From assembly GCF_000007985.2 (NCBI RefSeq), contig NC_002939.5, positions 3,450,001-3,482,000 on the forward strand: a DNA stretch of 32,000 bases, written 5' to 3'. The position numbers and the translations under genes are program-made. Source of the DNA: Geobacter sulfurreducens PCA. GTDB taxonomy: Bacteria > Desulfobacterota > Desulfuromonadia > Geobacterales > Geobacteraceae. Positions 904 to 31,091 of this stretch are shown here, one piece after another. Position 1 is the stretch's first letter. Each line of letters starts with the position of its first letter. The notes under the pieces were generated by a model. It saw only the letters and a list, made by a program, of their open reading frames with translations, searched no databases and had not been told where the DNA came from.

Positions 904-907
904 GAAT

Positions 908-9041: not shown

Positions 9042-9085
9042 GGTTCCGGTTCTCCTTCACGTCGTTGTGATGGGTGGAGACTGCC

Positions 9086-9163: not shown

Positions 9164-9190
9164 GCGGTTCCTTCTTTTCGCGCCTACGCG

Positions 9191-9646: not shown

Positions 9647-9723
9647 GCAACACCTCCTGTTCTCCCACGTTGAATGATAAACGGTACCCCGTCTTGGACG
9701 GGGGTCAAGCCCCTCCCATCCTC

Positions 9724-10731
9724 TCAGTGGCTCAGGTACGGCACCATGGGGATGAGCTGCCGGTAGTCCTCATAGGTAAGTGAGCTCTGCCAGGCGCCGG
9801 TGGCCATACCGGTGCCGATGCCGGCGGCGAAGAGGAGCAGCACCACGGCAGGGAACACCCATGCCGGGAGCGGCTGTCGCCAGAGGGGTGGCGCCATCCG
9901 GAGCACCTCCCGTTGGGGACAGCTGGCCACGCAGGTGAGGCAGCCGGTGCATTCGGCGGAGCGGATTGTCTCGCGCTCGTGGACCGGAAGCCCGGACGGG
10001 CAGGCCCTGGAGCAGCTGCGGCAGCCGGTGCAGCCGGCCGCGTCGCGCCGGATCTTGAAGGGACTCAGAAAACTCGCCACCCCCAACAGCGCGCCGTAGG
10101 GGCAGAGATAGCGGCACCAAGCGTTTTTGTAGAGCAGCGACAGTGCCGTGAGTACGAGGAGAGTCGCCACGGTGGTGCCCGACATCCGAGTAAAGAAGTG
10201 AAGCATCTTCACGTCGCTCACGGCCCAGTAGGGGGTTTCGAGAAAGGCCGCCAGGGCAAAGACCGGCATGTCGACCAGGATGATCTTGACGAAAAAGAGA
10301 AGCAGCAGGTACTTCGCCCCCCGCAGGACCCGGTCGAGCCGGGGCCAGACCCGGAAGTTGCGGCCAAAGAGCCGTTGTCCCAGCTTCCAGGCCGCCTCCG
10401 ACAGGGTCCCCACCGGACAGAGCCAGGAGCAGAACGACTTCTTCGCCACAAGGCTCATGCCGACGATGGTCAGGAAGATGACCAGGGCTGCCGGGTGGAC
10501 CGGGTTGATGGTGCCGGTGGCAAGCCAGAGCTTCGTGCCGGCCAAGGCACCGATGGGAAGAAATCCCTCCACTCCCGGCGGGCGGGAAATCAGCGGCGTT
10601 GCGCCGCCGGTCTCGAAGTGGCGGACAAAGACGCCGAAGCGGATGCCGATGACGACAACCCAGGCGAAGAAGCCCCACTGGACCAGGGAGCGCCAGAGGG
10701 TGATACGTGCATGCTGATGCCGATTGTTCAT
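9724..10731 (-). CDS. Integral-membrane 4Fe-4S polyferredoxin of the NapH/MauN/YccM type.
   Basis: 335 aa. It has several TM helices, two cytoplasmic-loop CxxCP motifs (CSWLCPVG, CRYLCPYG), and two C-terminal ferredoxin motifs (CTGCRSCSRACP, CTGCLTCVASCP). Confidence 0.85.
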   Translation of the reverse strand: MNNRHQHARITLWRSLVQWGFFAWVVVIGIRFGVFVRHFETGGATPLISRPPGVEGFLPIGALAGTKLWLATGTINPVHPAALVIFLTIVGMSLVAKKSFCSWLCPVGTLSEAAWKLGQRLFGRNFRVWPRLDRVLRGAKYLLLLFFVKIILVDMPVFALAAFLETPYWAVSDVKMLHFFTRMSGTTVATLLVLTALSLLYKNAWCRYLCPYGALLGVASFLSPFKIRRDAAGCTGCRSCSRACPSGLPVHERETIRSAECTGCLTCVASCPQREVLRMAPPLWRQPLPAWVFPAVVLLLFAAGIGTGMATGAWQSSLTYEDYRQLIPMVPYLSH

Positions 10732-10806
10732 GGGTAGTGCCTCGCGCAGCAGCGGTACCGGAGCCGGCAGGGACTGATACCGGCCCCGGCCCCGCTGCCA
10801 TCGTGA

Positions 10807-12279: not shown

Positions 12280-12324
12280 ATCGCTCTCCTCTCCTGCGCT
12301 AAATGCATGCTCTGTCCCGGCCCG

Positions 12325-12789
12325 TCACCGGGTGGCCATGGCGCCGGTCAGCTTGTGCCGCAGCTGCCGGTGACAGCCCCAACACTGGCGGGTCCGGTCC
12401 ATGGTGGTCACCGTCGCCTCGTGGCACCGGACGCAGTTCTGCTGGACGACTTTTGCCCCATGGGACGACAGCTTGATCGGATCGGGGACATGGCCCGAAT
12501 AGAAGGCCACCACATCCTTCATGCCGTCGATGGATTTCCAGACGTAGTGCGCGACCGGATTGCCGTTGGGAAGATGGCAGTCCACGCACCTGATCCTCCG
12601 GTGGGCGCCGGCGTGGCTCCAAGCCTCGTGCTGCTCACCCATCACGTGGCAGCCGGCGCAAAATGCCGGCGACTCCGAGTGCTCCAGCAGCCGGGGCGGC
12701 CCCACCAGCGCGAATGCCGCTACCGCCACACCGGCAATACCAGTGATAATCGTGGTCGCCAGGACCTGTCGTGACAACGAGATTCCCAT
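12325..12789 (-). CDS. nrfH: Tetraheme NapC/NirT-family quinol dehydrogenase NrfH.
   Basis: 154 aa. N-terminal TM anchor and four CxxCH motifs (CAGCH, CVDCH, CVRCH, CWGCH). It lies directly upstream of nrfA. Confidence 0.92.
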   Translation of the reverse strand: MGISLSRQVLATTIITGIAGVAVAAFALVGPPRLLEHSESPAFCAGCHVMGEQHEAWSHAGAHRRIRCVDCHLPNGNPVAHYVWKSIDGMKDVVAFYSGHVPDPIKLSSHGAKVVQQNCVRCHEATVTTMDRTRQCWGCHRQLRHKLTGAMATR

Positions 12790-12878
12790 TCCATTCTCCT
12801 ATCGGGTGCGGCGCCCGCTCGGCCTGCGGCGAGTACCGGCGGTTGATATTTAGAATACAAACCATTGGCGCGGATGGT

Positions 12879-12892
12879 TTGACTCAAGTCAA
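12879..12892. promoter_or_regulatory. Putative CRP/FNR-family binding site upstream of nrfH.
   Basis: Perfect palindrome TTGAC-tcaa-GTCAA (FNR consensus is TTGAT-N4-ATCAA). It is centred about 96 nt upstream of the nrfH ATG. A TATTCT hexamer (complement of 12852-12857) sits at the spacing expected for a class II (-41.5) promoter. Confidence 0.5.
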
Positions 12893-12921
12893 CAGCTCGA
12901 ACATTCACACCCGTCAACTGA

Positions 12922-12935
12922 CGGCACCGGCATTG
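12922..12935 (+). promoter_or_regulatory. Putative sigma-54 (-24/-12) promoter facing the MCP gene.
   Basis: GGCAC-cggca-TTGC matches TGGCAC-N5-TTGC with correct GG-to-GC spacing. It lies about 110 nt upstream of the GTG at 13046. An inverted repeat CGTCA-ac-TGACG (12911-12922) abuts it. Confidence 0.5.
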
Positions 12936-13045
12936 CCCGCAAAAAATGCACTTTTTCATAAAGAATCTGCTTTGGTTGCCGATGTAGATTAGTAGTGGTT
13001 CAGTGCCAAACCGTATGAAGGTTTCCGTCCAAAGGAGGTACTACC

Positions 13046-14161
13046 GTGTTTTTTGTATCGGGGATGAAGAAGCAGTTGGAGGAAAAAGACGCCGAGCTTG
13101 ATGTGCTCAAGCAAATGCTTGAAAATGTGAAAAACATTGTGATGCTCTGCGATGCAACCCCTGAAAATACTATCTTCTACATGAACAAGGCGGCGAGGGA
13201 GCTGCTGGCAAAATACCGTGGCGACCTGAACGCCGGCCTGCGCGGGGCCGACGTGGCAGCAGCCATGGACCATTCCATTCACCAGTTCCACAAGGATCCG
13301 AACCGCGTACGCATGATCCTGGGCAAACCGGGCGAAATGCCCCATTCGGCCGAAATCCCCATCGGGGGAATAACGCTCCGCACCACATCCTTCCCCATCT
13401 GGGACAAGAAGAATCCCGGCAGGGTCAAATGCTACATGGCATGCTGGGATGACATCACCGCCGAAAAGGAAGTGGTGGAGCGCAACCATCAGGAGCTGCA
13501 GCGCAAGGAATATCTGGAGGAGCGGGTGGCCCAGATCGCCACGGCCATGGAAGAGATGAGCATGACCGTGACCGAGGTGGCCCGCAACACCTCGAACGCT
13601 TCCGATTCGGCGGTCCAGGTTGCCCAGAACGCCCACGAGGGTCAGGAAATCGTCAACCGGTCGGTCCAGGAGATGCAGAAGGTTGCCCAGATCGTCCGCG
13701 ATTCGGCTGCCATCGTCGACTCGCTGGGGGGCAAATCGGAGAAGATTGGCGAGATCATCAACGTCATCAATGAAATCGCTGACCAGACAAACCTCCTGGC
13801 TCTCAACGCCGCCATCGAGGCGGCCCGCGCCGGCGAACAGGGGCGCGGCTTCGCCGTGGTGGCCGATGAGGTCCGCAACCTGGCGGTCAAGACCATGAAC
13901 TCCACCAAGCAGATCAACGCCATGGTGGCCGAAATCCAGCGGGAAACCCGCCAGGCCGTGGGTTCCATCGAGAACGCCAAGCAGGAGGCCGAAGTGAGCG
14001 AAAGCCTCTCGCTCCAGGCGGAATCGTCGCTGGTGACCATCGTTCAGGCCATCGAGGAGATCAAGAACGTCATCACCCAGATCGCCACCGCCTCAGAGGA
14101 GCAGGCAGCCACCGCCTCGGTGATTGCCGGCAATCTGGAGGAAATCTCGCGCAACGGCTGA
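13046..14161 (+). CDS. Soluble (no TM) methyl-accepting chemotaxis protein with an N-terminal PAS-like sensing domain.
   Basis: 371 aa. The highly conserved signalling hairpin [37 protein letters not shown] is present. The N-terminus has no hydrophobic segment. AGGAGG lies 7 nt before the GTG start. Confidence 0.9.
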
Positions 14162-14208
14162 CCCCACGCCTGACTCGCATATCAGAGTGTTACGAAACTG
14201 CCTGCAAT

Positions 14209-14233
14209 AGCCCGCTTCTGCGGGCTTTTTTTT
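14209..14233 (+). terminator. Rho-independent terminator of the MCP gene.
   Basis: AGCCCGC-ttct-GCGGGCT followed by T8. Confidence 0.85.
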
Positions 14234-14321
14234 GCCCAGCCATCGAGGTTGTTGCCCCGCGACGGCGCATTGGTATATGGTTTTCCCATTGATCCAATGA
14301 CGATTGAAAGGAGACTCCTCC

Positions 14322-15122
14322 ATGGAGGCACTCGTGAACGGCATCTCCCTCGCCTATGACGACCAGGGCAGCGGTCCGCCCCTGATCCTGATCCACGGCT
14401 TTCCCCTCCAGAGAAAGATGTGGCATCCCCAGATCCAGGCAGTGACCGGCGCCGGCTTTCGCCTCGTGACCCCAGACCTGCGGGGTTTCGGCGAATCGGA
14501 TGCCCCGGACGGACCTTACTCAATGGAGATATTCGCCGACGACATCGTGGCGCTCATGGATCATCTGTCGATCGGGCAGGCGGTCATCGGCGGAATGTCC
14601 ATGGGAGGCTACGTCCTCATGAACCTGCTGGAACGCTACCCGGAGCGGGTTGCCGGGGCGTGCTTCATCGTGACCCGGGCGCCGGCCGACGACGAGGCGG
14701 GCAAGGCCCGGCGGCTGCACCTGGCCCAGGAGGTGATGAAGTTCGGGCCTCAGCTGGTGGCGGACGCGTTTGTGGAAGTCCTCTTCGCCGAGCAGAACCT
14801 CACGGAGCGGCCGAAACTGGTTGAGGAGGTCTACGGGTGGATGAGCGCCACCGATTCGCGGGGGCTTGCGGGCGGGCTCCTGGCCATGCGGGAGCGCACG
14901 GACTACGGCGCGCTTCTGGACCGGTTCCGGGTGCCGGCACTGGCCATCGGGGCCGAAGATGACCGGGCCATCCCGGCCGAATTCTCCCGGGCCATTGCCG
15001 CCGGCGTTCCGGGGTGCCGACTCTGTATCGTGCCCGAGGCAGGGCATCTGGCCAATCTGGAGCATCCGGGGGCCTTCAACGACTGCCTGCTGGAATTCCT
15101 CACCTCGCTCGGCAGCTGGTAG
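14322..15122 (+). CDS. Alpha/beta-fold hydrolase.
   Basis: PPLILIHGFPL...GGMSMGGYV (GxSxG nucleophile elbow)...GHLANLEHP (catalytic His region). Start placed at the ATG at 14322, 9 nt after AAAGGAG, rather than the TTG at 14304. Confidence 0.85.
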   Translation: MEALVNGISLAYDDQGSGPPLILIHGFPLQRKMWHPQIQAVTGAGFRLVTPDLRGFGESDAPDGPYSMEIFADDIVALMDHLSIGQAVIGGMSMGGYVLMNLLERYPERVAGACFIVTRAPADDEAGKARRLHLAQEVMKFGPQLVADAFVEVLFAEQNLTERPKLVEEVYGWMSATDSRGLAGGLLAMRERTDYGALLDRFRVPALAIGAEDDRAIPAEFSRAIAAGVPGCRLCIVPEAGHLANLEHPGAFNDCLLEFLTSLGSW

Positions 15123-15130
15123 CGGACATG

Positions 15131-15153
15131 AAAAAGCCCGCGGGATGCGGGCT
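15131..15153 (-). terminator. Rho-independent terminator of the cysteine synthase gene, lying between convergent genes.
   Basis: AGCCCGC-auccc-GCGGGCU followed by UUUUU on the minus strand. There is no U-tract on the plus strand. Confidence 0.75.
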
Positions 15154-15182
15154 GGTGGTGCAACGTCAGGCACATGCGCCTC

Positions 15183-16109
15183 TCAGGGAGGGCACTTGCC
15201 GCAAACCGACCGGAACAGGACCGTGCTGAGATAGCGGTCCCCCCGGTCCGGCAGGAGCACTACGATGGTGCTGCCTGCCGGGGCATCCCGTGCCACCTGG
15301 ACGGCACCCGCCACGGCGGCGCCGCTGGACATCCCCACGAAAAGGCCCTCGCGGGCGGCCAGCTCACGGGCCGTGTCGAAGGCCGGCTCGTCATGGACCG
15401 TCAGCTTCAGGTCCAGGGCCTCGGGGTGGTAGATGGGAGGCACGATGGCTTCCTGCATGTTCTTGAGCCCCTGCACCTTGTGCCCCAATCGCGGCTCCAC
15501 GCCCACGATGCGCACGGAAGGCTTCTTCTCCCGGAAATAGCGGCTCGTTCCCATCAAGGTGCCGCCCGTCCCCATGCCGGCCACGAAGAAGTCGACGGCA
15601 CCGCCGGTGTCCCGGAAAATCTCAGGCGCAGTGGTCTCATAGTGAGCCAGGGGATTGTTGGGATTGGCGTACTGGTTGGGCATGTAGTAGCGGTCCGGCT
15701 CCTCTTCCAGGATGCGGTGGGCCAGCCGGATGGCTCCGTCGGTGGCCTCGTCGTGGGGAGAGAGGACCAACTCGGCGCCATAGGCCTCCAGCACGGCGCG
15801 CCGTTCAAGGCTTACGCAGGCGGGCATCACGAGCTTGACCCGGTATCCCTTGACCGTGCCGAGCATGGCCAGAGCGATGCCGGTATTGCCGGAGGTCGGC
15901 TCGAGGATGGTCTTCTCCGGCACCAACTCGCCGGACTCCTCCGCCTTGGCCAGCATGTAGAGAGCCGGACGGTCCTTGACGGAACCGCCCACGTTATTCC
16001 CCTCCAATTTGGCCAGGATGCGAACCCGCGGATTCGGGTTCAGGTGTCGCAGCTCAACGAGGGGGGTGGCGCCGATGCTGCCGGCAAGCGAAAAAGGGGG
16101 ATGCTCCAT
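15183..16109 (-). CDS. PLP-dependent cysteine synthase (CysM-like).
   Basis: 308 aa. TPLVEL...KLEGNNVGGSVKDRPALYML (PLP lysine motif, closer to the CysM GSVKDR form than to CysK)...EPTSGNTGIALA...GTGGTL. Confidence 0.9.
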   Translation of the reverse strand: MEHPPFSLAGSIGATPLVELRHLNPNPRVRILAKLEGNNVGGSVKDRPALYMLAKAEESGELVPEKTILEPTSGNTGIALAMLGTVKGYRVKLVMPACVSLERRAVLEAYGAELVLSPHDEATDGAIRLAHRILEEEPDRYYMPNQYANPNNPLAHYETTAPEIFRDTGGAVDFFVAGMGTGGTLMGTSRYFREKKPSVRIVGVEPRLGHKVQGLKNMQEAIVPPIYHPEALDLKLTVHDEPAFDTARELAAREGLFVGMSSGAAVAGAVQVARDAPAGSTIVVLLPDRGDRYLSTVLFRSVCGKCPP

Positions 16110-16222
16110 GGCAGGATTCCTCTAAACGGAAAAAGGTGCTTAATGCCCCCTCATGCTATACGAACATGCCGCAAAAAACAACATTCGCGAGCCACCTCGG
16201 CTTTTGCCGCCAGGAAATCCCC

Positions 16223-16813
16223 ATGACGAACCCGACCCTTGACGAGATCGAACGCACCTTGAAGGACTCCGGAGGGGAAAACCGGCCGGCCGCCGCCGCT
16301 TATACCCCTGCAGCCGTGGCGCTGATCTTGCGCCGGGACGCCAGCGAGGTGTCGATCCTCTTCATCGAGCGCTCCCCCCACGATGGCGATCCCTGGTCCG
16401 GCGACCTGGGGTTTCCGGGCGGCAAGGTAGAGGCGGGCGATGCCGGTCCCCGTGCCGCCGCCGAACGGGAGACTCGGGAGGAACTGGGCGTTGACCTGGC
16501 CTCGGCCCGCCTGTTGGGTCGGCTTGCCGATATCGAGGGGGCCCACCTGCCGATCCGGGTGTCCTGCTTCGTCTACGGTGTGACCGGAGCACTTTCCCTT
16601 CACCCGGGCGGCGAGGTCCGCGACGCCTTCTGGGTCTCCCTGGAGGCACTGTGCGATCCCGCCCGCCACGTAACTGCGCCGGTCCGCTTCGGCGGCGAAC
16701 CCTTCGAGCGACCGGCCATCATCCTTCCCGTGTCAGGAAAGCCGGTCCTGTGGGGGATCACCTACCGGCTCGTGATGCAGTTCCTGGCCCTCCTCGGCAA
16801 GGCACGGGGATGA
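16223..16813 (+). CDS. NUDIX hydrolase (CoA pyrophosphatase-like).
   Basis: Nudix box GFPGGKVEAGDAGPRAAAERETREELG. Start placed at the ATG at 16223 (MTNPTL). Confidence 0.85.
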   Translation: MTNPTLDEIERTLKDSGGENRPAAAAYTPAAVALILRRDASEVSILFIERSPHDGDPWSGDLGFPGGKVEAGDAGPRAAAERETREELGVDLASARLLGRLADIEGAHLPIRVSCFVYGVTGALSLHPGGEVRDAFWVSLEALCDPARHVTAPVRFGGEPFERPAIILPVSGKPVLWGITYRLVMQFLALLGKARG

Positions 16814-17571
16814 GCGCCGTGGAGATCCTCTTTCGCGACCAATACCTGGTGGCCGTGCACAAGCCGGCCGGGCTCCTGGTGCACCGAAGCCCCATCGACC
16901 GCCATGAAACCCGTTTCGCCCTCCAGGAGGTGCGCGACCTCCTCGGCCGCCGGGTCTATCCCGTTCATCGCCTCGACAAGCCCACCTCCGGCGTCCTGGT
17001 GTTCGCCCTGGACCCGGCAACGGCCCGTTCGCTCGGCGATGCCTTCGCCGGCGGCCGGGTGAACAAGACCTACCTGGCGGTCACCCGGGGGATTGTCCCG
17101 CCGGAGGGAATCATTGACCACTCCCTGAGCGAAGAACCGGACCGGCTGGACGGTGCGAAGAGCTCACCAGCAGCGCCTCAGCCGGCGGTCACCGTTTTCC
17201 GGCGACTCGCGGAAGCAGAACTGCCCGTGGTAACGGGGCGCTATGCCTCCTCCCGCTACTCACTTGCGGAACTAACACCCCACACCGGCCGCCGCCACCA
17301 GCTGCGGCGCCACATGAAGCACATCTTCCACCCGATCATCGGCGACACCACCTACGGCGAAGGGCGCCACAACCGCTTCTTCCGGGAAGAGTTCGGCTGC
17401 GGCCGTCTCCTGCTCCATGCCGCGGAGCTTTCGCTGCCGCATCCCGCAAGCGGAGAAACCCTGACCATCGCCGCACCGCCGGACCGGGAGCTCGCCCGCC
17501 TCCTGGATCGCCTCGGCTGGCTGGCTGCGGCGACCGGTCGCGGGCGGCCGGGCATGCCTGCGCCGCCTTGA
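16810..17571 (+). CDS. RluA-family pseudouridine synthase (TruC-like, lacks an S4 domain).
   Basis: LVAVHKPAGLLVH...VHRLDKPTSGVLVFA (catalytic Asp motif)...HQLRRH. The ATG at 16810 overlaps the NUDIX stop codon (ATGA). Confidence 0.88.
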   Translation: MSAVEILFRDQYLVAVHKPAGLLVHRSPIDRHETRFALQEVRDLLGRRVYPVHRLDKPTSGVLVFALDPATARSLGDAFAGGRVNKTYLAVTRGIVPPEGIIDHSLSEEPDRLDGAKSSPAAPQPAVTVFRRLAEAELPVVTGRYASSRYSLAELTPHTGRRHQLRRHMKHIFHPIIGDTTYGEGRHNRFFREEFGCGRLLLHAAELSLPHPASGETLTIAAPPDRELARLLDRLGWLAAATGRGRPGMPAPP

Positions 17572-17655
17572 TTTTTGCCGTGGCGGCGCGTATGGTACGC
17601 GCAGGGACAACCATTGCGCGCTGTGTTACTCTTTTCAGGCAGGGAGGTACATGTC

Positions 17656-18144
17656 ATGGGAGAGAATACGAGTCTTGAGAAGGCTACCTTCGGGGCCGGC
17701 TGTTTCTGGCATGTGGAAGAGGAGTTCCGCCGCGTGCCCGGAGTCGTCTCAACCCTGGCGGGATATATGGGGGGATGGAAGGAACACCCCACCTACGAGG
17801 AGGTCTGCTCCAAGACCACCGGCCACGCCGAGGTGGTGGAGGTGACCTTTGACCCCGCCGCCGTCACCTATGACCACCTGCTGCGGGTCTTCTGGGACTG
17901 CCACGACCCGACCCAGCTCAACCGGCAGGGCCCCGACATCGGCACCAACTACCGCTCCGTCATCTTTTACCACTCGCCGGACCAAGAGCGGGCGGCCCGG
18001 GCCTCCCTAGAGCACGAGCAGCGTTCCGGGCGCCATGCCCGCCCCATCGTTACCGAGATCGTTCCGGCTGCCACCTTCTGGTGGGCCGAGGAATACCACC
18101 AGCACTACCTGGAAAAACGGGGCGGCGGCAGTTGCCGCTGGTAG
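17656..18144 (+). CDS. msrA: Peptide-methionine (S)-S-oxide reductase MsrA.
   Basis: ATFGAGCFWHVEEEF...GYMGG...PTYEEVCS..TGHAEVV. AGGGAGG lies 8 nt upstream of the ATG at 17656. Confidence 0.93.
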   Translation: MGENTSLEKATFGAGCFWHVEEEFRRVPGVVSTLAGYMGGWKEHPTYEEVCSKTTGHAEVVEVTFDPAAVTYDHLLRVFWDCHDPTQLNRQGPDIGTNYRSVIFYHSPDQERAARASLEHEQRSGRHARPIVTEIVPAATFWWAEEYHQHYLEKRGGGSCRW

Positions 18145-18239
18145 GCCGGCGGATATTCTCCGCGAGCCCGGCGCGTGAACTCCCGCCCACGGGCAAATGA
18201 CCCGACGCACGCACACTATCCCCATCCCACGAGGATCCC

Positions 18240-19286
18240 ATGAACATCATTGACCTGCGCAGCGACACCGTTACCCGGCCGAGCCCTGCCATGCGCGCCG
18301 CCATGGCGGGAGCCGAGGTAGGGGACGACGTCTATGGCGAAGACCCGACCGTGAACCGGCTGGAGGAACTGGGCGCCGCCACGCTCGGCACGGAAGCGGC
18401 CCTGTTCACCGCCAGCGGTACCCAGGCCAATCTTCTGGCTCTCCTGGCCCACTGCCGGCGTGGTGACGAATACATTGCCGGCCAGACCGCCCACTGCTAT
18501 CGCTACGAAGGGGGCGGTGCCGCCGCTTTGGGGGGCATCCAGCCCCAGCCCCTGGAGGTGGAACCCGACGGGACCCTCGATCTCTCAGCCGTGGCCGCCG
18601 CCATCAAGCCGGACGACCTCCACTTCGCCCGCACCCGGCTCCTCTGCCTGGAAAACACCCATGCCGGGCGGGTTCTTCCCCTGGACTACCTGGCACGCGC
18701 CAGACGGCTCTGCAACGAGCAGAGCCTTGGCCTGCACATGGACGGTGCCCGCATCTTCAATGCCGCCGTAAAGCTCGGCGTACCGGTCCGCGAGATCGCC
18801 GGTCACGTGGATTCGGTGTCGGTCTGCCTCTCCAAGGGGCTCGGCGCCCCGGTGGGGTCGCTGCTCTGCGGGGGAAGGGAGTTCGTCGCCACGGCCCGCC
18901 GGTGGCGCAAGGCGGTCGGAGGAGGCATGCGCCAGGCCGGCATCCTGGCGGCCGCCGGCATCCTGGCGCTGACCGAAAACGTTGACCGGCTCGCCGAGGA
19001 CCATGCCAACGCCCGCCGCTTGGCCGAGGGGTTGGCCGCCATCCCGGGGCTGGGCCTTGACCCGTCCCAGGTCCAGACCAACATGGTATTCCTGTGCCTC
19101 CCTCTCCGGACGGCGGACCGGCTCGCCTCATTTCTCAACGAACAGGGAATTCTCATCTCCGGCCGGGAAAGTATCCGTCTCGTCACCCACCTTGACGTAA
19201 CCTCTTCGGACGTGGAACGGGTTATCGCGGCATTCGGCGCATTCTTCGCCGGCCACGGCGAGATGCAACCGGGAGCATCGTCATGA
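18240..19286 (+). CDS. ltaE: Low-specificity L-threonine aldolase.
   Basis: 348 aa. [19 protein letters not shown]...[16 protein letters not shown]...SGTQANL...[12 protein letters not shown] (PLP lysine). Confidence 0.9.
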
Positions 19287-19651
19287 TGGTCCGCAGTCTC
19301 ACAGCCATGCTTGTCCTTGCCGCTACCGTGGCGCTCACACCGGCACTGCTCCATTCCGCCCCGGACAAGCCCGGCCGGACAGCCGAATCCCGTAACCCCT
19401 CAGTGGTCATCTTCGTCGGTGAAGGCTGACCCTACTGCGATGAGGTGGAAAGGTTTTTCACCGAAAAGGGCATCCCCTACACCTGCCGCGACATCCGCCG
19501 CGACCGCGCCGCGTTCCGGGAGTGGCGCGAGCGCTACGGCGGCGAGATCGTACCCATGGTAGTCCTCGATGGAGGAAAGAAGGTTATCGACGGCTGCGAC
19601 ATTCCTGCCATCGAACGCGCCCTGGCGGACATTCGCTCCTCCCGGCCGTGA
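19283..19651 (+). CDS. Exported glutaredoxin-fold thiol/selenol oxidoreductase, a predicted selenoprotein with Sec encoded by TGA at 19427-19429. 122 aa.
   Basis: Hand translation gives [48 protein letters not shown]-[TGA][73 protein letters not shown]. The TGA falls exactly where Grx has the first Cys of CPYC. The same frame continues into ORF-track 19445..19651. The cis-Pro (VP) and GCD motifs are present. The ATG overlaps the ltaE stop (ATGA). The N-terminus looks like a signal peptide. Confidence 0.75.
19430..19470 (+). promoter_or_regulatory. Candidate bacterial SECIS element.
   Basis: Starts directly after the UGA. Lower stem is CCCU/AGGG (19430-33 with 19467-70). Upper stem is GGUGGAA(A)/(U)UUUCACC (19444-51 with 19455-62). 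The apical loop contains GGU. The upper stem begins 14 nt after the UGA. Confidence 0.55.
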
Positions 19652-24147: not shown

Positions 24148-24193
24148 GGCCACACTCTCTGTGGCTGTATCGCAGGAACAAGGAGCGGAACTG

Positions 24194-26563
24194 ATGCCCT
24201 CCGTTGATCCGTGCTGGCGCTGGTCTGCCTTCGGCAAACATCCTGCCGCAGCTGACTATTTTCGGCTCGGTGAGGATTCTCCCTTTGTCGAAGGATTGGC
24301 CGCATGGGTGGAGAACGGGTACCGGCATCTCATCAGTCGGCACGAAGCGACAATGCCGTTCTGCTCCTGGCGCTTCTGGGCCCGCGGGTTCGGCCGGGAT
24401 TCCCTTGTCCTTGGAGTGGTCCGGCTCTCCAGCGACAGCCTCGGCCGCTCCTATCCGCTGCTCATCATGGGAAGCGGCCCCCTTGAGGGATGGGAAGAGC
24501 AGTGGGACCTGCTCCCTTTTGCTTGTGAACCGTCATGGTGCCAGATCGAGTACTTGGCGACGCATTCCTTTGATGGTCTGAAGCACGTGGGTGAAGAACT
24601 CCGAAGGGTTCGCCCCCCCGGGTCGGACTGGGACGAGCTGGCGGAACGGCGCCGCGGCCTGAACCGGCTCGGTTCCCCCCTTGATCCCTATGCATCCTTC
24701 CTGGACATCCCCAGTCTCGAACGACTGGTCGCCGAACATTCCGGCCGGGAAGAGTTTTCCGTCAGACTCGACCGGGGGCCGGTGCATGACAAAATCACCC
24801 TGGTAAGCCTTTGGCACCTCCTGACCAAGAGGACCGTCAAAGGAGTCCCCCACACCCTTTTCATGGGCGGCAACCTGGAACACTCCTTTCTCGCCTCCTT
24901 CCGGCGGGCCCTGGCCCCGGGGGATTTTCTCCACCTCTGGTCCGCGCCGGAGGCAGGAGGATGGCACGACAGCATCGGAACGGGGCACGCCTTGGACATT
25001 GCATCTATCGGAAAAGAACCGGTGTGCCCCGAACGGCCGGCCGGCGAGGATATTCGCTACGATCCCCTCTTCGACGCGCTCCAGGCGGAGGTTGACAAGC
25101 TCACCTCCCCCGCCGTGGCCGGTGCCGTCGACTGGGAACGGGTGGTACATATGGCAGCCGACATCCTCGCCACCCGGTCCAAAGACCTCCTTGTGGCGAG
25201 CTACCTGGCAGTGGGACTCGTCCAGACCCGCGGGGGTGACGGCCTCGCTCTGGGGCTCACTGTCTGGCGCGATCTCCTGGAACGGTTCTGGTGCACCCTC
25301 TACCCCACCCGCACACGGGGGCGCCAACGATCGGTGGAGTGGTGGCTGGATCGGACCGTGATCGCCCTGCATCATCAGGGAAACTGGTCCCTTCCCCCTG
25401 AGCAACACGGCATTGTGCTGGAAACCCTTGGCGCCATAGACCGCTTTCTGGGAGAGCGCCTGGAGGATGCCCCCTCCCTTACGAAACTGAGGCAACTACT
25501 GGCGGACATGGCGCCGGAAGGCGGAGAAGAAACGGCCCCCGAAGCCGTGGTTGCTACGCCGGCTCAAGCCGAGGCTCCCGCCACTGGCCTATTCGCTCCG
25601 CCCCGTCAAACCGCCGCCCCCGCCGTGGAGCCCCCCTGTCAGGCGATTGCCACTGGCTCCTCCCTTCAGATGCTGGAGGAAGCGCTTCGCCAGGTGGGGG
25701 AGGCGGCCGGCGCCCTCATCCAGCAGGATCCCGCGGCCCCCGTATCCTATCGGCTCTCCCGCCTTGCCGCCTGGGGGAAGGTAACCGAGCTCCCGCCGTC
25801 GATAAACGGACGTACCCGAATCCCTCCTCCCGAGCGGCAGGTGCTGACCCTTCTCCAGGAACTGGCCAGCCACGGAGACGGCGAGGCGCTCCTGAAGGCG
25901 GCTGAGGCGCGGCTTCCCCAGTTCATCTTCTGGCTCGATCTGAGCCGGCTCACCGCCAAGGCTCTCTGCCGCCTCGGCGACCGCTTTGCCGCCGCCCGCG
26001 AAGCGGTCTGCGCGGAGACGGCCGCCTTTGTGGGTCGGCTTCCGGCCCTTCCTGACCTGACCTTTGCCGACGGCACTCCCTTTGCCGCCCCGGAAACCCG
26101 CCAGTGGCTCACGGGGCTCGCACAGCGCGGGGCATCCGTTGCAGACTGCCCTGCGGTGGGTCATAACGACGGCCGCGCCGCGGCCATTGCCCGGGAGGTG
26201 GAAGAGGCCCAGGCTCTCATTCGGGACGGCAAACTCCTGGAGGCGGTGGAGCGGTTCCAGAAACAACTCGGCAACGGCGCCTCCCGCAAGGAGAGGCTCC
26301 ACTGGCGTCTCGCCCTGGCCCAACTCCTTGTGAACACCAATCGGGCCAAGCTGGCGCTCCCCCATCTAGAGCAGGTCGTGGCGGACATCGAGGCCTTCGG
26401 CCTCGAAGAGTACGACCCGGCCCTGGCCCTGCGGGGGCTGAAGCTCGCCTGGGCCGGCTTCGATTCCCAGATCGAGCCCCGCTTCAAGGAAAAGGCCGCC
26501 GATGCCCTCCACCGGATCGCCCGCCTCGATCCGGTGGAGATGGTGCGACTGACGAAGGGGTAG
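24194..26563 (+). CDS. tssA: TagF-TssA fusion protein: an N-terminal TagF (DUF2094/ImpM) domain joined in-frame to a full-length ImpA_N-type TssA (VasJ-like).
   Basis: Residues ~12-262 of the tracked ORF carry the TagF signature (WSAFGKHPAAADYF...SYPLLIM...GDFLHLW). From about residue 278 (nt ~24990) onward is the TssA N-terminal signature LDIASIGKEPVCPERPAGEDIRYDPLFDALQAEVDKL...WERV...A..IL...SKDL. There is no stop codon between the two. AGGAGC lies 7 nt before the ATG at 24194. Confidence 0.8.
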   Translation: MPSVDPCWRWSAFGKHPAAADYFRLGEDSPFVEGLAAWVENGYRHLISRHEATMPFCSWRFWARGFGRDSLVLGVVRLSSDSLGRSYPLLIMGSGPLEGWEEQWDLLPFACEPSWCQIEYLATHSFDGLKHVGEELRRVRPPGSDWDELAERRRGLNRLGSPLDPYASFLDIPSLERLVAEHSGREEFSVRLDRGPVHDKITLVSLWHLLTKRTVKGVPHTLFMGGNLEHSFLASFRRALAPGDFLHLWSAPEAGGWHDSIGTGHALDIASIGKEPVCPERPAGEDIRYDPLFDALQAEVDKLTSPAVAGAVDWERVVHMAADILATRSKDLLVASYLAVGLVQTRGGDGLALGLTVWRDLLERFWCTLYPTRTRGRQRSVEWWLDRTVIALHHQGNWSLPPEQHGIVLETLGAIDRFLGERLEDAPSLTKLRQLLADMAPEGGEETAPEAVVATPAQAEAPATGLFAPPRQTAAPAVEPPCQAIATGSSLQMLEEALRQVGEAAGALIQQDPAAPVSYRLSRLAAWGKVTELPPSINGRTRIPPPERQVLTLLQELASHGDGEALLKAAEARLPQFIFWLDLSRLTAKALCRLGDRFAAAREAVCAETAAFVGRLPALPDLTFADGTPFAAPETRQWLTGLAQRGASVADCPAVGHNDGRAAAIAREVEEAQALIRDGKLLEAVERFQKQLGNGASRKERLHWRLALAQLLVNTNRAKLALPHLEQVVADIEAFGLEEYDPALALRGLKLAWAGFDSQIEPRFKEKAADALHRIARLDPVEMVRLTKG

Positions 26564-26569: not shown

Positions 26570-27763
26570 ATGGAACAGGATTGCGAATCGATTGCTTGCG
26601 GAAAAGGCTCCAAAACCAGGGCCCAAAAATCCGGAACCGGCGGGCGGATCGCCGTGACCGGTTTCGGCCTCGTGACCCCCATGGGAGTTACGTCCTGGCG
26701 CTCCGTGTCAGCCGTGATCCGCAACCGCAGCCACTTCGCCTGGCACGAAACGGTTCTGGTGGCCGACGCCCCCGACGGCACCGCCCTGCGTGGTGCGACG
26801 ATCAGCCGGGTTTCGGGGGAAGGCGTGCGGTTCGGCCTGACCGGGAGCGAGCGAAGTCTGGCGCTCTTGGCACCGGCGCTCCGGGAGGCCACCAGCGGCC
26901 TTTCACCCTCCCCTGGCGACGCGGTGCCGGCATGGATCATCAATGGGATCCCTTCGGAAGAAGTCGGGGCAATTCCCTGTCCGGCGGACATTCTTCCCCT
27001 CCTCTCTCCGATGGAGCATCTACCGGTTGGCCGGGAGGCAGGCTCCGGACGCTGCCTCTTTCTTGACCGGGTAGCCGAGGCGGCGAAGGCCCTCAGAGAG
27101 GGGAGATGTCCGCGGGCGCTCGTCGCCGCCGTCGACTCCCTCTGCTTCCTGCCGGTGCTCGAAGAACTCCTGGCGGCCGGCAGACTTCTGAGCGGGCCGA
27201 ACCCCGAGGGGATCATCCCCGGAGAGGCGGCCGGAGCCATCCTCCTGGAGCGGGAAGAGTCGGCACGGAAGCGGGGCGCCCCCATCTACGCGTTCGTCTC
27301 ATCACGGGGCCACGGCATTGATCCCGCTCCCCGCACCGGAGGCCGCCCTTCGCAGGGGAGGGGGCTCACCGAAGCGTTTTTTCAGGCCTTCGATGGACTT
27401 CCCACCACCGGTGGAGAGATGGGGCTGGTCGTCGCCGACCTGAACGGCGAACGGCAGCGTGCGCTGGGATGGGCCGTGACCGAAGAACGGGTTTTCGGCC
27501 CCTCACACCGGGAGCGGCAACTGTGGCTCCCCGCCTTCTCCGTCGGGGAATGCGGCGCGGCCCTCGGCGTGGTGCAGACCGTCGTCGCCGTCGCAGCTCT
27601 TGCCAAGGACCTCGCCAACGGGGAGCAGGTCGCCCTCTGTTCCTCCGATGACGGAGGAGAGACACGGGTACTCTGTCTCGATCAGGGGGACTTCGCCGAT
27701 CGCCATGCCCTTAACCGGTGGCGGCGGGAGCGGCAGGCGAAAACGAACGAAAGAGTAACCTGA
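26570..27763 (+). CDS. Thiolase-fold, beta-ketoacyl-synthase-like protein with a degenerate active site.
   Basis: 397 aa. RIAVTGFGLVTPMG matches FabF RVVVTGLGMLSPVG. GIIPGEAAGAILLEREESARKRGAPIYAFV matches [30 protein letters not shown]. In a by-eye alignment to E. coli FabF, the Cys position may be kept (GRCLF), but His303 aligns with Asp (VVADLNGE) and His340 with Glu (FSVGECGAALG). Confidence 0.75.
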   Translation: MEQDCESIACGKGSKTRAQKSGTGGRIAVTGFGLVTPMGVTSWRSVSAVIRNRSHFAWHETVLVADAPDGTALRGATISRVSGEGVRFGLTGSERSLALLAPALREATSGLSPSPGDAVPAWIINGIPSEEVGAIPCPADILPLLSPMEHLPVGREAGSGRCLFLDRVAEAAKALREGRCPRALVAAVDSLCFLPVLEELLAAGRLLSGPNPEGIIPGEAAGAILLEREESARKRGAPIYAFVSSRGHGIDPAPRTGGRPSQGRGLTEAFFQAFDGLPTTGGEMGLVVADLNGERQRALGWAVTEERVFGPSHRERQLWLPAFSVGECGAALGVVQTVVAVAALAKDLANGEQVALCSSDDGGETRVLCLDQGDFADRHALNRWRRERQAKTNERVT

Positions 27764-28431
27764 TGGGAGCAACGCTTGTCGTCAACGGCCAGACCGTCGT
27801 CCACAAGGAAAGCGGCGGCGTAGTCACCACCACCGACGTCTGCAAGACGCCGGTGGGAAACACCGTGGTGCCGATTCCCTACACCAACGTCGCCCGGTCG
27901 GTCGATGTGGCAAACGGCAGCAGTACCGTGGCCGTGGACGGCCACCCGGTCATGCTGAAGGATTCGGTCTTCAGCCGCAGCAGCGGAGATGAGCCGGGCT
28001 CCCTCGGCGGCGTCGCCTCCGGGGTCACCGGCGGCAAGGCGAAGTTCGTCAACTTCTCGAACAACGTCTTCTTCGAAGGACGCCCGGTCTGCCGCCGTCT
28101 CGACCCCATGGTCAGCAACCTCTCCGGCACGGGGAACACCCCGCCGGCGCCTCTGATGCAGGAGAATATAGCCGTGGCGGCCGACGATCACCAGGGGCAC
28201 CGGATACCGTTCACCTTCTCCTTCAGGCATCCGGACTTGAAAAGCGGCAGGGTCGAATTCCCCTCATTCACCGCCCGGCACGCCATGGAGGGAACGACCG
28301 ATCCGGGGGATGACCCCGACGGCTACTGCGACGACGTCCACCTCGCCGGCGCGCCGGGGACCCACGACCTGAGGTTCGCCGACTTCGAGCGCGAACGGAA
28401 GAAACTCCCCCGCGAGGAGACCACCACATGA
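27763..28431 (+). CDS. DUF4150 PAAR-like T6SS spike-tip protein with a ~90-aa C-terminal extension of unknown function.
   Basis: MGATLVVNGQTVVHKESGGVVTTTDVCKTPVGNTVVPIPYTNVARSVD...GSSTV.VDGHPVMLKDSVFSRSSGDEPGSLGGVASGVTGGKAKFVNFSNNVFFEGRPVCRRLDPMVSN matches the DUF4150 pattern. The ATG overlaps the stop of the KAS-like gene (TGATG). Confidence 0.85.
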   Translation: MGATLVVNGQTVVHKESGGVVTTTDVCKTPVGNTVVPIPYTNVARSVDVANGSSTVAVDGHPVMLKDSVFSRSSGDEPGSLGGVASGVTGGKAKFVNFSNNVFFEGRPVCRRLDPMVSNLSGTGNTPPAPLMQENIAVAADDHQGHRIPFTFSFRHPDLKSGRVEFPSFTARHAMEGTTDPGDDPDGYCDDVHLAGAPGTHDLRFADFERERKKLPREETTT

Positions 28432-29456
28432 CCATATCCGCCACCCTGCGCAGGGCGCTCCTCTTCCTGCTCATCACGCCGATCGTCACCCTGCTTGCCT
28501 GCACGAGCAGCGAAGGGACGCAGAAAAAAAGCACGCAACCCTCGACTGACAAAGGAGTACCACGGATGACCACCTACCCCATCGGAAGATTCGCCATCGA
28601 TGTGCCGGCGGAGATGAAGCTGGTTCACCAGTGGCAGAGGCTCCGCTACGCGGAGATCGAGGAGTTTGCCTGGTCCGGCAGCGTTCCCCGCGAACGGGCC
28701 CGTGACGAGGCATGGAAGAAGCGCCTGACAGAGATCGGCAAACTCACTCCACCCAAAGGAAAGGAGCGGGTGATCATCGAGACTCGCGAGTTTCCCGGTG
28801 TTGGGGCGTGGGCGCGGGGAATCCTCTTCTACGGCAACAGAATGAGTCCAAAGGACGGGAATTGGCTGATTCTTATGGATGTGGGTCAAACTGCTGCATG
28901 GCTGGAATTAAAGGGGCTCGTTCAATACGAGCAGGATATGCTTCACGATCTGACCGAGATTGCGAAATCTTATCAAGCTCGTCGCTTCGGCGATCTCAAA
29001 CTCCCCCCTGGCAACTGGTTCTATACCGAACGTGGTGCCATCAATCTCCCCTACCTGGAGCAGGAAACGGCCGCCGCCCGGTTCGAGGGGCACCCGCTGG
29101 GGTTGGAGATCGACATCGAGACAACGGAGACGCACAAGGTAGAAGAAGCCGGTCTCATCAAAAAGACCATGGCCGCCATGGCGACAGGATTCGCCACCGG
29201 TTTGGATATCGACAAAATCCGCTCCAGGAAAAAGACTGTTGCCGGCCTCGACGGAGAAGAAGAAGTTCTCAAAATGAACGATGGCAACAAAACCGTCTTG
29301 AACTTCGCATGGGAATACCGGGGAAGAAAGGATTCCGGAGAGTATCCGGAGATACGCATTACCATGGACAGCGCTGATGGCAAACTGGAGCAAAAGCTCC
29401 AGGTCTGGGACGCCATCCTTAACTCGCTGAAACCGATGTACGGAACCGGCAGATAA
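28428..29456 (+). CDS. Lipoprotein, probable Tli4-family T6SS lipase immunity protein.
   Basis: 342 aa. Signal peptide with lipobox (LITPIVTLLAC|TSS). The motif YPIGRFAIDVPAEM resembles the CxGRFxIDLP motif I recall for Tli4-type immunity proteins. The ATGA overlap with the PAAR-like gene and the position immediately upstream of a lipase support this. The family call is tentative; the CDS and lipoprotein calls are firmer. Confidence 0.65.
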   Translation: MTISATLRRALLFLLITPIVTLLACTSSEGTQKKSTQPSTDKGVPRMTTYPIGRFAIDVPAEMKLVHQWQRLRYAEIEEFAWSGSVPRERARDEAWKKRLTEIGKLTPPKGKERVIIETREFPGVGAWARGILFYGNRMSPKDGNWLILMDVGQTAAWLELKGLVQYEQDMLHDLTEIAKSYQARRFGDLKLPPGNWFYTERGAINLPYLEQETAAARFEGHPLGLEIDIETTETHKVEEAGLIKKTMAAMATGFATGLDIDKIRSRKKTVAGLDGEEEVLKMNDGNKTVLNFAWEYRGRKDSGEYPEIRITMDSADGKLEQKLQVWDAILNSLKPMYGTGR

Positions 29457-29471: not shown

Positions 29472-31091
29472 GTGAGTATTTCCTCGGAAATCAACCAGAT
29501 CGACATCAAGTGGTGGGAGCTGTTCGACACCATACGGGGTCTCAGGACCGAGGTGCAGAACCGGATCGTCATCGAGCGGGAGGTGATCCCGATCATCTTC
29601 GTCCCCGGCATCATGGGAAGCCGACTGAAGTTCGCCAAGGGGAAGAAGCAAGGGACGAGAGCATGGGACCCCGACTCTTCTGGCTTCATGTTTTTGAATT
29701 ACGGCAGATTCGACGTTTCCGCAAAGAAAAAGAAGGCCCTCCTCGTCGGCCCGGAGTTCGATCCCGACTACCTGGAGGTCGACACCAACAACCCGAAGCT
29801 CGACAAAAGTTTCCTGCGACGCTACCCGAGAGCCGACAAACGGGGTTGGGGCGGGGTCATGTGGGGGAGTTACGGACCGATCCTGCGGGCACTTCACGAT
29901 CACCAATGGGAGGAACCGGTGGGACACTGTTTCGAGTTCCCGGTCCACGCCTTCGGCTACAACTGGACCGCCTCCAACATGGAGGCCGGCAGGAAGCTGA
30001 AGGAGTATATCGGTGCCACCATCGACCACTATGCCAAAGGATTGAGGGACGAAGCGGGGCGCCCCCTGGAACGCCTCTGCACTCGGGTTATCCTCGTGAC
30101 CCACTCCATGGGAGGGCTCGTGGCCCGGTCCGCCTGCGTGCTCCACGGTGCCGCAGAAAAAGTGCTCGGGGTCGTCCACGGCGTGCAGCCGGCCACCGGC
30201 TCACCCGCCGCCTACTGGCGGATGAAAGCCGGGTTCGAACGCCCTGCCGGCGGACCCCGCAAGAGCATCTGGGATTGGTTTCTCAATCCCGTGAAGATGT
30301 TCGAGCGGCGGGCCATGGGGTATGCCTCGGCCTGGATCCTCGGTACCGACGGTGAGGAGGTGACGGCGCTCTTGGGGAACATGCCGGGGGGGCTGCAACT
30401 GCTGCCGAATAAGGATTACCGGGACAATAGCGGCAGCCGGCAGTGGCTCGCCTACCCAGGGGCCGACGGCCGTACCCTGAGCCTTCCCCGGAGCGACCCC
30501 TACGAGGATATCTACCGCGTCCGAGACAACGTACCCTGGCGGATGGTGAACCCGGACTGGCTCGATCCAGGGAATCCAACTGGCAGCTCCAAGAGCTATC
30601 GGAGCAAAACATCATGGGATCATTATGAGGAATATCTCCTTGAGGCCGAAGAATTCCACGACAACCTCGGCTCCCGGGTCCACGACGACACGGTCCAGTT
30701 CTACTCCACCACCCTCGACTCACCGGACCGGATCGTTTACACCCGCGAACCCCACGTGCATTCTACGCCCCACCAGTTCAGGAATAAGGGGGCATTCCGG
30801 GCCTATGTGGACAGTAACGACGAAATACGGGAAACCTTCGCAGGAGCAACGGCGGTGGTCGCCCTGGAACCCTTCTCCGGCACCGGCGACGGCACCGTCC
30901 CCGATTCGTCGGGCAAGGCCCTGAAGGTTCCCACGGCACGGATCGGTCGGGATTCGCCCGCCGATTTCTTTTCCATCGACCATCAGGGAATCTATGGGAC
31001 GGATACAGCGAAGAAAATTGTCTTCACCACCGTCTGGAACCTGGCGATCAAGCGGATCGAGGAACAGGTGGGGGGGCCGGCCGGTGATTGA
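29472..31091 (+). CDS. T6SS lipase/phospholipase effector candidate (Tle-type, GxSxG class, LCAT/PGAP1-like alpha/beta hydrolase).
   Basis: 539 aa with no signal peptide. IIFVPGIMGSRL (oxyanion region), VTHSMGGLV (Ser212, nt 30105-30107), GTGDGTVP (Asp473), SIDHQGIY (His504). GTG start at 29472, with no nearby in-frame ATG. Confidence 0.8.
   Translation: MSISSEINQIDIKWWELFDTIRGLRTEVQNRIVIEREVIPIIFVPGIMGSRLKFAKGKKQGTRAWDPDSSGFMFLNYGRFDVSAKKKKALLVGPEFDPDYLEVDTNNPKLDKSFLRRYPRADKRGWGGVMWGSYGPILRALHDHQWEEPVGHCFEFPVHAFGYNWTASNMEAGRKLKEYIGATIDHYAKGLRDEAGRPLERLCTRVILVTHSMGGLVARSACVLHGAAEKVLGVVHGVQPATGSPAAYWRMKAGFERPAGGPRKSIWDWFLNPVKMFERRAMGYASAWILGTDGEEVTALLGNMPGGLQLLPNKDYRDNSGSRQWLAYPGADGRTLSLPRSDPYEDIYRVRDNVPWRMVNPDWLDPGNPTGSSKSYRSKTSWDHYEEYLLEAEEFHDNLGSRVHDDTVQFYSTTLDSPDRIVYTREPHVHSTPHQFRNKGAFRAYVDSNDEIRETFAGATAVVALEPFSGTGDGTVPDSSGKALKVPTARIGRDSPADFFSIDHQGIYGTDTAKKIVFTTVWNLAIKRIEEQVGGPAGD

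Follow-up and report, generated by a model that had tools for sequence, protein, structure and literature searches.

The TvpD1 locus of Geobacter sulfurreducens

The stretch of DNA considered here, hereafter the window, comprises 32,000 nucleotides of Geobacter sulfurreducens PCA, and its right-hand portion carries part of a type VI secretion system (T6SS) cluster. Within the window this cluster begins with tssL at 19887 and continues through tssM, a tagF-tssA fusion gene, GSU3168, a DUF4150 gene, a Tli4_C gene and a gene for a PGAP1-like lipase to tssB and the start of tssC. The gene of interest is GSU3168, which bears the database name “3-oxoacyl-ACP synthase” (ACP, acyl carrier protein) and is an intact open reading frame (ORF) of 397 codons with an ATG start on the forward (+) strand (26570..27763). 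Its product, referred to here as TvpD1, is a pseudo-enzyme of the PRK06147 (TvpD) family with the fold of β-ketoacyl-ACP synthase (KAS) II.

An original prediction, made from the sequence without database searches, had placed this 397-aa ORF directly after tssA and in a TGATG overlap with a DUF4150 PAAR-like gene, and both statements were borne out. The start codon lies 6 nt past the stop of the 800-aa ORF for TagF–TssA, and the final A of the TGA stop of TvpD1 (27761–27763) is at once the first base of the downstream ATG (27763), so that the two genes overlap by one base. The product of the downstream gene, PAAR1, matches the DUF4150 model PF13665 with E = 4.8e-37. A GAAGGGG run (26554..26560, + strand), read from the sequence 9 nt before the TvpD1 ATG and inside the 3′ end of tssA, may act as a Shine-Dalgarno element. 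The identical TvpD1 protein is found on many G. sulfurreducens contigs, including the chromosome CP072789.1, and also in the sequence of a mock community of which strain PCA is a member.

Family membership and fold

The NCBIfam model NF004798 (PRK06147) recognizes TvpD1 with E = 9.2e-123 and 409.9 bits, above its curated cut-off of 342, and the alignment pairs residues 24–378 of the protein with positions 3–349 of the 349 in the model. The NCBIfam models for FabF, KAS and polyketide synthase (PKS) proteins return only 18–33 bits against cut-offs of 325–759; TIGR03150 (fabF) reaches 32.7 bits against 493.75, the FabF models stay at or below 33 bits where their cut-offs exceed 380, and the remaining KAS/PKS models reach at most 30 bits. 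The Pfam ketoacyl-synt match is similarly weak (23.3 bits) and spans residues 169–232 only. At E ≤ 1e-30, an exhaustive profile search recovers approximately 2,480 cluster representatives of the PRK06147 family.

An AlphaFold2 model of TvpD1, built with 29 homologues, has a predicted local distance difference test (pLDDT) score of 80.6 and a predicted template modelling score (pTM) of 0.85. Its best Foldseek matches in the PDB are all FabF/KAS II structures (probability 1.0, template modelling (TM) score of ~0.61–0.71, 16–20% identity), and FabF itself heads them with a TM score of about 0.68 and 17–20% identity. Because the model is confident and its matches are of the FabF/KAS II type, the thiolase/KAS fold of TvpD1 can be regarded as real. 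The KAS-I/II hallmarks on which the original prediction relied are likewise sound, as both of the quoted motifs are aligned to FabF by HMMER: RIAVTGFGLVTPMG of TvpD1 pairs with RIVVTGMGMINSLG of FabF, and GEAAGAILLEREESARKRGAPIYA with a further FabF stretch. Low pLDDT values occur at residues 58–88, a region that aligns with the ordinary N-terminal segment of KAS enzymes. The clade to which TvpD1 belongs has, in addition, an N-terminal tail particular to it and a helix at the C-terminus (378–396), both of which are missing from the paralogue described below and from other clades.

The family has a history in the T6SS literature. PRK06147, with 407 homologues, was proposed as a fourth class of T6SS adaptor; a PAAR gene follows 52.3% of these homologues, 74.4% lie near a DUF2169 gene, 3.8% are fused to TIGR02270, and some clusters contain PRK06147 and effector homologues with no other adaptor (Liu et al. 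2020; PMC7714669). The member from the Pseudomonas aeruginosa vgrG1b island, PA0098, has been called “thiolase-like” (PMC7970981; bioRxiv 2023.12.14.571490), and a thiolase-like gene defines the “synteny type A” of DUF2169 genes (Sachar et al. 2025; PMC11883445). In the most recent account, PA0098/PRK06147 is named TvpD and predicted to act as a co-chaperone for PAAR in the Tvp systems of Class II; the basis is an AlphaFold complex with an interface predicted TM score (ipTM) of 0.753, in which PA0098 and a DUF2169 protein occupy a groove that surrounds the PAAR domain of Tse7 (Monlezun, Earl and Coulthurst 2026; PMC13373197). The suggestion that the locus encodes an undescribed component, or a new class of adaptor, therefore cannot be upheld, given the score above the PRK06147 cut-off, the adaptor proposal of 2020 and the naming of 2026. 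TvpD1 is a further member of the TvpD/PRK06147 family that had been mis-labelled, and it represents neither a new class nor a new kind of system.

Loss of the catalytic residues

The catalytic columns were read from an hmmalign alignment of TvpD1 and 179 homologues (180 members in total) to the family profile together with Escherichia coli FabF; for the His, Lys and His of FabF, HMMER alignments to PDB chains give matching positions. The catalytic His303 of FabF is replaced by Asp290 (codon 27437..27439, + strand; also aligned by HMMER to PDB FabF chains), within VVADLNGE, and Asp occupies this column in 176 of the 180 members. His340 is replaced by Glu327 (codon 27548..27550, + strand), within SVGECG, and the column holds an acidic residue in 173/180 (Asp, 138; Glu, 35). 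Both of these substitutions had been anticipated by eye, and the profile alignment agrees; what had been overlooked is a third, as the catalytic Lys335 is replaced by Ala322 (codon 27533..27535, + strand), with Ala in 168 members.

The nucleophile fares no better. The original prediction held that the Cys was possibly retained, which is doubtful, as in the register of the profile Arg161 falls on the position of Cys163 and Cys162 comes one residue later (codons 27050..27055, + strand). Around the nucleophile the register may be off by one position, since the local alignments that reach significance start just past that residue, and in neither register is a Cys conserved. The Cys163 column holds Arg in 75 members and His in 68 (143 with Arg/His) and Cys in none, and the column after it holds Ala in 57, Cys in 39, Thr in 26 and Val in 25. 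The combination of Cys, His and His is found in 0/180 family members. Arg161, Asp290, Ala322 and Glu327 of TvpD1 are each the majority residue of the family, and the resulting active-site signature, Arg/His-Asp-Ala-Asp/Glu, was derived in the present analysis and is not a published definition. Nine further or overlapping positions are near-invariant across the 180 divergent members: Asp189, Ser190, Glu219, Asp290, Gly293, Glu294, Arg307, Gly326 and Gly329.

TvpD1 is thus a catalytically degenerate protein of the thiolase/KAS fold, and the earlier view that it is not a decarboxylating condensing enzyme agrees with a catalytic loss that extends over the family and with KAS model scores far below their cut-offs. 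In place of the Cys-His-His triad, Arg/His161, Asp290 and Asp/Glu327 probably form a buried salt bridge. In the T6SS papers that were term-searched for it, no discussion of this family-wide exchange was found, and the exchange of the KAS catalytic set for Arg/His-Asp-Ala-Asp/Glu constitutes a modest addition to the field.

Gene neighbourhoods and fusions across the family

A genome scan by one peptide pattern returned 42 loci (retrieved loci and proteins are designated by L- and P-numbers, respectively). With a threshold of >100 bits for a true family member, 21 loci outside G. sulfurreducens qualify, which are a convenience sample and not a census, and the remainder hold ordinary KAS genes of at most 66 bits. 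A DUF4150 gene is present in 20 of the 21 independent family loci, usually as the next gene, and the context is that of a T6SS in 20/21; the ordinary-KAS loci of the same scan gave no DUF4150 match.

The arrangement varies by clade. In the clade of TvpD1 (Geobacter and Smithella; 38–80% identity) the order is VgrG-TvpD-DUF4150 (~222 aa)-Tli4-Tle-DUF2169, with VgrG directly upstream of TvpD in the relatives L011–L016, L053 and L059, and with DUF6484 absent from the clade loci L012, L013, L016, L053 and L059. G. sulfurreducens and two close relatives instead have the order tssA-TvpD-DUF4150-Tli4-Tle-tssB. Other clades (L017, L019, L021, L023, L025 and L047) follow the published layout of VgrG-DUF6484-DUF2169-TvpD-(TIGR02270)-DUF4150-toxin. 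Three further PAAR/Tle/Tli4 loci, picked by way of their PAAR-like protein, all contain TvpD, although their gene order differs; TvpD is therefore linked to the module and not to a gene order. In two of these three loci it takes the form of a TvpD-TIGR02270 fusion behind the lipase.

Such fusions recur. All ten of the long family representatives (P0036–P0141) are PRK06147-TIGR02270 fusions, and Myxococcus loci encode a TIGR02270/PRK06147 fusion in the opposite domain order. Since fusions in both domain orders arise in different lineages, they suggest that the HEAT-repeat protein (PA0101-like) binds TvpD directly as a physical partner. The fusion genes lie at 8180–10636 in L018/L024, 14264–16627 in L057 and 11356–13704 in L058. 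A fusion of another type is found at L026 (8924–11038), where a 704-aa protein joins DUF2169 (Pfam, residues 21–317) to TvpD (ketoacyl-synt, residues 504–568); the contig is labelled as a metagenome-assembled genome of an uncultured Actinomycetes, an odd host for a T6SS, and mis-binning is possible. At L058 (14810–15859), directly after a DUF2169 gene, lies a 349-aa protein with a Pfam ketoacyl-synt match and only 34 bits on the TvpD profile, which could be either a thiolase-like accessory protein of greater divergence or a member of another family. Family membership, fold, catalytic loss, the conserved linkage and the gene fusions are in this way established.

A second TvpD–PAAR pair in the same cluster

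The T6SS cluster of G. sulfurreducens extends beyond the window. Its order is tssL, tssM, tagF-tssA, the module of TvpD1, PAAR1, Tli4 and Tle, and then tssB, tssC and hcp; beyond hcp follow a 151-aa gene, a LysM protein, VgrG, DUF6484, TIGR02270 and a second pair, TvpD2 and PAAR2, and past PAAR2 come genes for a 125-aa product, an Amidohydro_2 protein, a 406-aa product and DUF2169. The 151-aa gene that separates hcp from the LysM gene, ahead of VgrG (L008, 12667–13122; L013, 6375–6830), is conserved and has no Pfam or NCBIfam match.

This second module (L008, 16276–19490) begins ~10 kb past the right end of the window, behind the only VgrG, and is composed of DUF6484, a TIGR02270 HEAT-repeat protein (E = 1e-194), TvpD2 and a bare PAAR2. 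TvpD2 (GSU3181) has 347 aa and matches NF004798 with E = 9e-116, and PAAR2, which directly follows it, is a DUF4150 protein of just 126 aa. TvpD1 and TvpD2 share 25% identity overall and 32% over the C-terminal half; the PAAR domains of PAAR1 and PAAR2 are 50% identical. The TIGR02270 protein of the second module holds the place that DUF2169 has in the published Class II layout.

VgrG, DUF6484, TIGR02270 and DUF2169 are each encoded once in the G. sulfurreducens cluster, but TvpD–PAAR pairs are encoded twice, which fits TvpD as a PAAR-specific component. This difference in copy number is the best local argument for TvpD as the PAAR-specific partner. The position of DUF2169 deserves separate mention. 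The window is free of DUF2169 genes, and in L001–L008 none occurs in the 10 kb before or the ~15 kb after TvpD. A search with DUF2169 nonetheless found a G. sulfurreducens protein, under PCA and KN400 accessions, so that the statement that this species has no TvpA was rejected, and an 89,481-nt contig that bears an exact TvpD1 also has this protein in partial form (P0308). DUF2169 is accordingly in the cluster but not in the TvpD1 module.

The tip, immunity and lipase genes and the remaining window

The presumed client of TvpD1 is PAAR1 (GSU3169; 27763..28431, + strand), a DUF4150 (Tox-PAAR-like) tip protein of 222 aa in which the PF13665 match covers residues 20–120. Its C-terminal extension of ~80–95 aa is kept in relatives, and hundreds of homologues of 215–230 aa have in common both this extension and a linker of the form MxSNLSxxGNTPPAPLxQxN. 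One DUF4150 homologue has a CarboxypepD_reg (transthyretin-like) Pfam domain, which is the only hint on the fold of the extension; an AlphaFold2 model of PAAR1 from a 37-sequence alignment is poor (mean pLDDT 48.3, pTM 0.27).

The next gene, which overlaps that of PAAR1 by ATGA, encodes a Tli4-like immunity protein of 342 aa (28428..29456, + strand; Pfam Tli4_C, E = 2.1e-13). It is followed by a Tle4-like lipase of 539 aa (29472..31091, + strand), a PGAP1-like α/β hydrolase with an HSMGG motif (Pfam PGAP1, E = 1.2e-7), which is the putative cargo effector of the module. In every related locus the lipase gene occurs together with those for PAAR and Tli4. The Tli4-like gene precedes the lipase gene here, and in relatives either order is seen, at times with duplication (L057, L059).

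On the other side of TvpD1 lies the TagF_N–TssA fusion ORF of 800 aa (24161..26563, + strand), which by Pfam and NCBIfam matches contains TagF_N (residues 23–138) and a complete TssA (ImpA_N and VasJ; TIGR03362, E = 1.4e-155). TagF is a repressor of the T6SS in other systems, and the fusion may be of regulatory interest. The tagF-tssA gene is otherwise context, outside the module in relatives, where VgrG holds that place. Positions 1–19300 of the window are filled by housekeeping genes, among them those for a methyltransferase, MobA/B, a GAF histidine kinase, the NrfA/NrfH cytochromes, a methyl-accepting chemotaxis protein (MCP), a NUDIX protein, an RluA-like protein, MsrA and a threonine-aldolase-like protein. 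Three long ORFs of this portion without a Pfam match, at 3453–4778 (442 aa), 15174–16223 (350 aa) and 9074–9670 (199 aa), all on the + strand, may be real genes of unknown kind or chance ORFs of GC-rich DNA.

Proposed role of TvpD1 and its alternatives

Together, these features make it likely that TvpD1 is a co-chaperone without enzymatic activity that serves its own DUF4150 PAAR tip alone. TvpD1 would stay in the cytoplasm, neither secreted nor catalytic, where it would hold and shield PAAR1 until the latter is mounted on VgrG. The single-copy DUF6484/TvpC-like, TIGR02270 HEAT-repeat and DUF2169/TvpA proteins of the cluster would assist it, and the mounting of PAAR1 would in turn license delivery of the Tle4-like lipase. 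We infer that TvpD1 binds the PAAR domain physically, that it acts as a chaperone and that delivery of the lipase depends on it. The original prediction of an accessory or chaperone protein tied to the DUF4150 tip, as opposed to a condensing enzyme, is supported to this extent. Its more specific proposal, a chaperone or adaptor that loads the lipase on the tip, stands as regards the accessory or chaperone kind; lipase loading is less likely as the main role, because the constant neighbour across the family is the PAAR-like protein and no particular toxin.

Several points weigh against the co-chaperone role. The literature yielded no direct experiment on any PRK06147/TvpD protein, and the role assigned in P. 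aeruginosa is that of an AlphaFold model. What the data from Proteus mirabilis demonstrate is no more than a need for the whole pef operon, and the mutants described lie in other genes and are polar. In G. sulfurreducens, DUF6484 is ~10 kb and DUF2169 ~20 kb from the TvpD1 module, and their joint action with TvpD1 is an assumption. TvpD identity correlates with PAAR identity (Spearman 0.59, 190 locus pairs), as would be seen in cognate pairs; common ancestry confounds this correlation, however, and it can be given little weight. Lastly, the invariant polar residues Arg/His161, Asp290, Glu294, Arg307 and Asp/Glu327 are situated precisely at the old active site, and their retention could mean a ligand-binding or catalytic site and not inert packing.

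This last point is the core of one alternative, in which Arg/His-Asp-Asp/Glu constitutes a new catalytic or binding site, with acyl chains, metals and peptides as conceivable ligands, and the chemistry of this site, as opposed to passive chaperoning, is the T6SS role of the protein. The nine near-invariant residues of the 180 members, several of them at former catalytic positions, speak for such re-purposing. Judged from alignments, however, Asp189/Ser190 and Glu219 belong to structural motifs that genuine KAS enzymes also possess (GGxE and GEGAG), and an Arg or His between two carboxylates would equally well be a buried salt bridge that fills the pocket. Furthermore, no ACP, acyl-transferase or fab genes occur near TvpD1, and the family is fused to structural accessory proteins only, so that a re-purposed site appears quite improbable. 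Somewhat less improbable, if still unlikely, is that TvpD1 is a cargo adaptor which joins the separately encoded Tle4-like lipase to the extension at the C-terminus of PAAR1, instead of or besides chaperoning PAAR1. Within the clade (at least 38% identity) TvpD is always accompanied by a DUF4150 protein of 215–230 aa, a Tli4-like protein and a PGAP1-like lipase. The lipase encoded in the window lacks a loading domain, be it PAAR, VgrG or another, and the N-terminal tail and C-terminal helix (378–396) particular to this clade could be seen in the same light. Across the family, however, the toxin varies (Tox-GHH2, AHH and others) and is usually fused to the PAAR domain, and DUF4150 is the constant partner; TvpD2 precedes a bare PAAR of 126 aa; and the conserved extension of PAAR1 is itself the more obvious docking site for the lipase.

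The two readings closest to current annotation fare worst. GSU3168 (tse1) and GSU3181 (tse4) are listed as putative effectors under the description “fatty acid metabolism protein”, as is Gmet_0287 (tse2) of Geobacter metallireducens (Smith et al. 2023, Table 1; PMC10580878), which together with the location in a T6SS cluster would favour a secreted effector that disturbs fatty-acid metabolism in the target cell. Against this, the catalytic triad is absent, and TvpD1 has no immunity gene of its own, as the Tli4-like gene, the sole one of immunity type nearby, pairs with the lipase. TvpD1 is also placed upstream of PAAR in the manner of chaperone genes, and fusions in the loci sampled are to DUF2169 or TIGR02270 and never to toxin domains. 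A secreted effector is for these reasons very improbable, and the listing of tse1, tse4 and tse2 is probably a mis-assignment. As for a genuine β-ketoacyl-ACP synthase that has come to lie in a T6SS cluster by chance, the database names, the weak ketoacyl-synt match (23.3 bits) and the KAS fold are all that favours it. It was rejected, with next to no probability left to it, on the loss of all four catalytic residues here and throughout the family, on the NCBIfam KAS scores of 18–33 bits against cut-offs of 325–759 and on the T6SS context of 20/21 loci. For the annotation of GSU3168, the evidence says that the product is an accessory protein of TvpD type and not a toxin or a lipid-synthesis enzyme.

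A bolder extension of the co-chaperone role is possible, and we put it forward tentatively as the less probable case: TvpD may be a specificity factor for the spike tip, such that two divergent cognate pairs compete for one VgrG and one set of helpers, and the Geobacter clade may represent a fourth Tvp arrangement. If so, the TvpD that is made would decide the payload of the spike, either the Tle4-type lipase or a second payload encoded near the amidohydrolase-domain gene. TvpD and DUF2169 of the Geobacter clade would then work without a TvpC pre-complex, an arrangement beyond the three published classes, and the Arg/His-Asp-Asp/Glu pocket might recognize the PAAR or a ligand. With two TvpD–PAAR pairs and single copies of the other Tvp-type helpers in one cluster, G. 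sulfurreducens provides a compact system for asking whether TvpD confers PAAR specificity, and its Geobacter relatives show an arrangement of TvpD and DUF2169 that lacks DUF6484.

Comparison with known systems

The closest known counterpart of TvpD1 is TvpD/PA0098 of the P. aeruginosa vgrG1b island (NF004798; IPR040771), with which the PefC-position genes of P. mirabilis and VP1399 of Vibrio parahaemolyticus were grouped. Both proteins match the family model above its cut-off and have a KAS-like fold, in both cases the next gene of the T6SS locus encodes a DUF4150 PAAR-like protein, and the clusters of both contain DUF6484, DUF2169 and a TIGR02270 HEAT-repeat protein, the last of which is not treated as a Tvp component in the accessible part of the 2026 classification. 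Unlike PA0098, TvpD1 is not flanked by DUF6484 and DUF2169, which adjoin the second TvpD–PAAR pair downstream. The extension of its PAAR partner is short and not a toxin; in place of a nuclease fused to PAAR, the module has as its toxin a free-standing Tle4-like lipase. TvpD1 additionally carries the N-terminal tail and C-terminal helix.

With regard to the Tvp classes, the order VgrG-TvpD-PAAR-Tli4-Tle-DUF2169 of the close relatives matches none of the three published ones exactly. Class II (VgrG, DUF6484 as TvpC, DUF2169 as TvpA, TvpD and DUF4150, all contiguous) has DUF2169 as a stated common and defining component, whereas the TvpD1 module has no adjacent DUF2169. The DUF6484 gene of G. 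sulfurreducens follows the single VgrG outside the window, and none is found in the loci of five close relatives.

FabF and KAS II (E. coli FabF; PDB 1KAS, 2GFW) have in common with TvpD1 the overall thiolase/KAS fold, the N-terminal RxxVTGxG strand and the GE(A/G)AG...A(K/R)xRGAxIYA motif. They differ in that TvpD1 has replaced all of Cys163, His303, Lys335 and His340 and resides in a T6SS rather than a fab or PKS context. A precedent for such a protein is the chain-length factor (CLF; KS-β) of type II polyketide synthases, a KAS-fold paralogue that has given up condensation and acts as a partner subunit. The actinorhodin CLF (PDB 1TQY, chain B) is itself among the Foldseek matches of TvpD1, at rank 29. 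The CLF, however, forms a heterodimer with an active ketosynthase (KS) and shapes its acyl pocket, whereas nothing connects TvpD with acyl chemistry or with a KS.

In function, the nearest analogues are the DUF2169 chaperones (TvpA; Atu3641/Tap2 of Agrobacterium; VP1398 of Vibrio), as the proposed role, stabilizing DUF4150 proteins for VgrG, is alike. These chaperones are frequent neighbours of TvpD and at times fused to it. Their fold is unrelated, and their role has experimental support (PMC11883445), whereas that of TvpD is predicted. The split module, the two TvpD–PAAR pairs, the relatives that lack TvpC and the separate lipase cargo are thus variations of a known system and do not amount to a new one.

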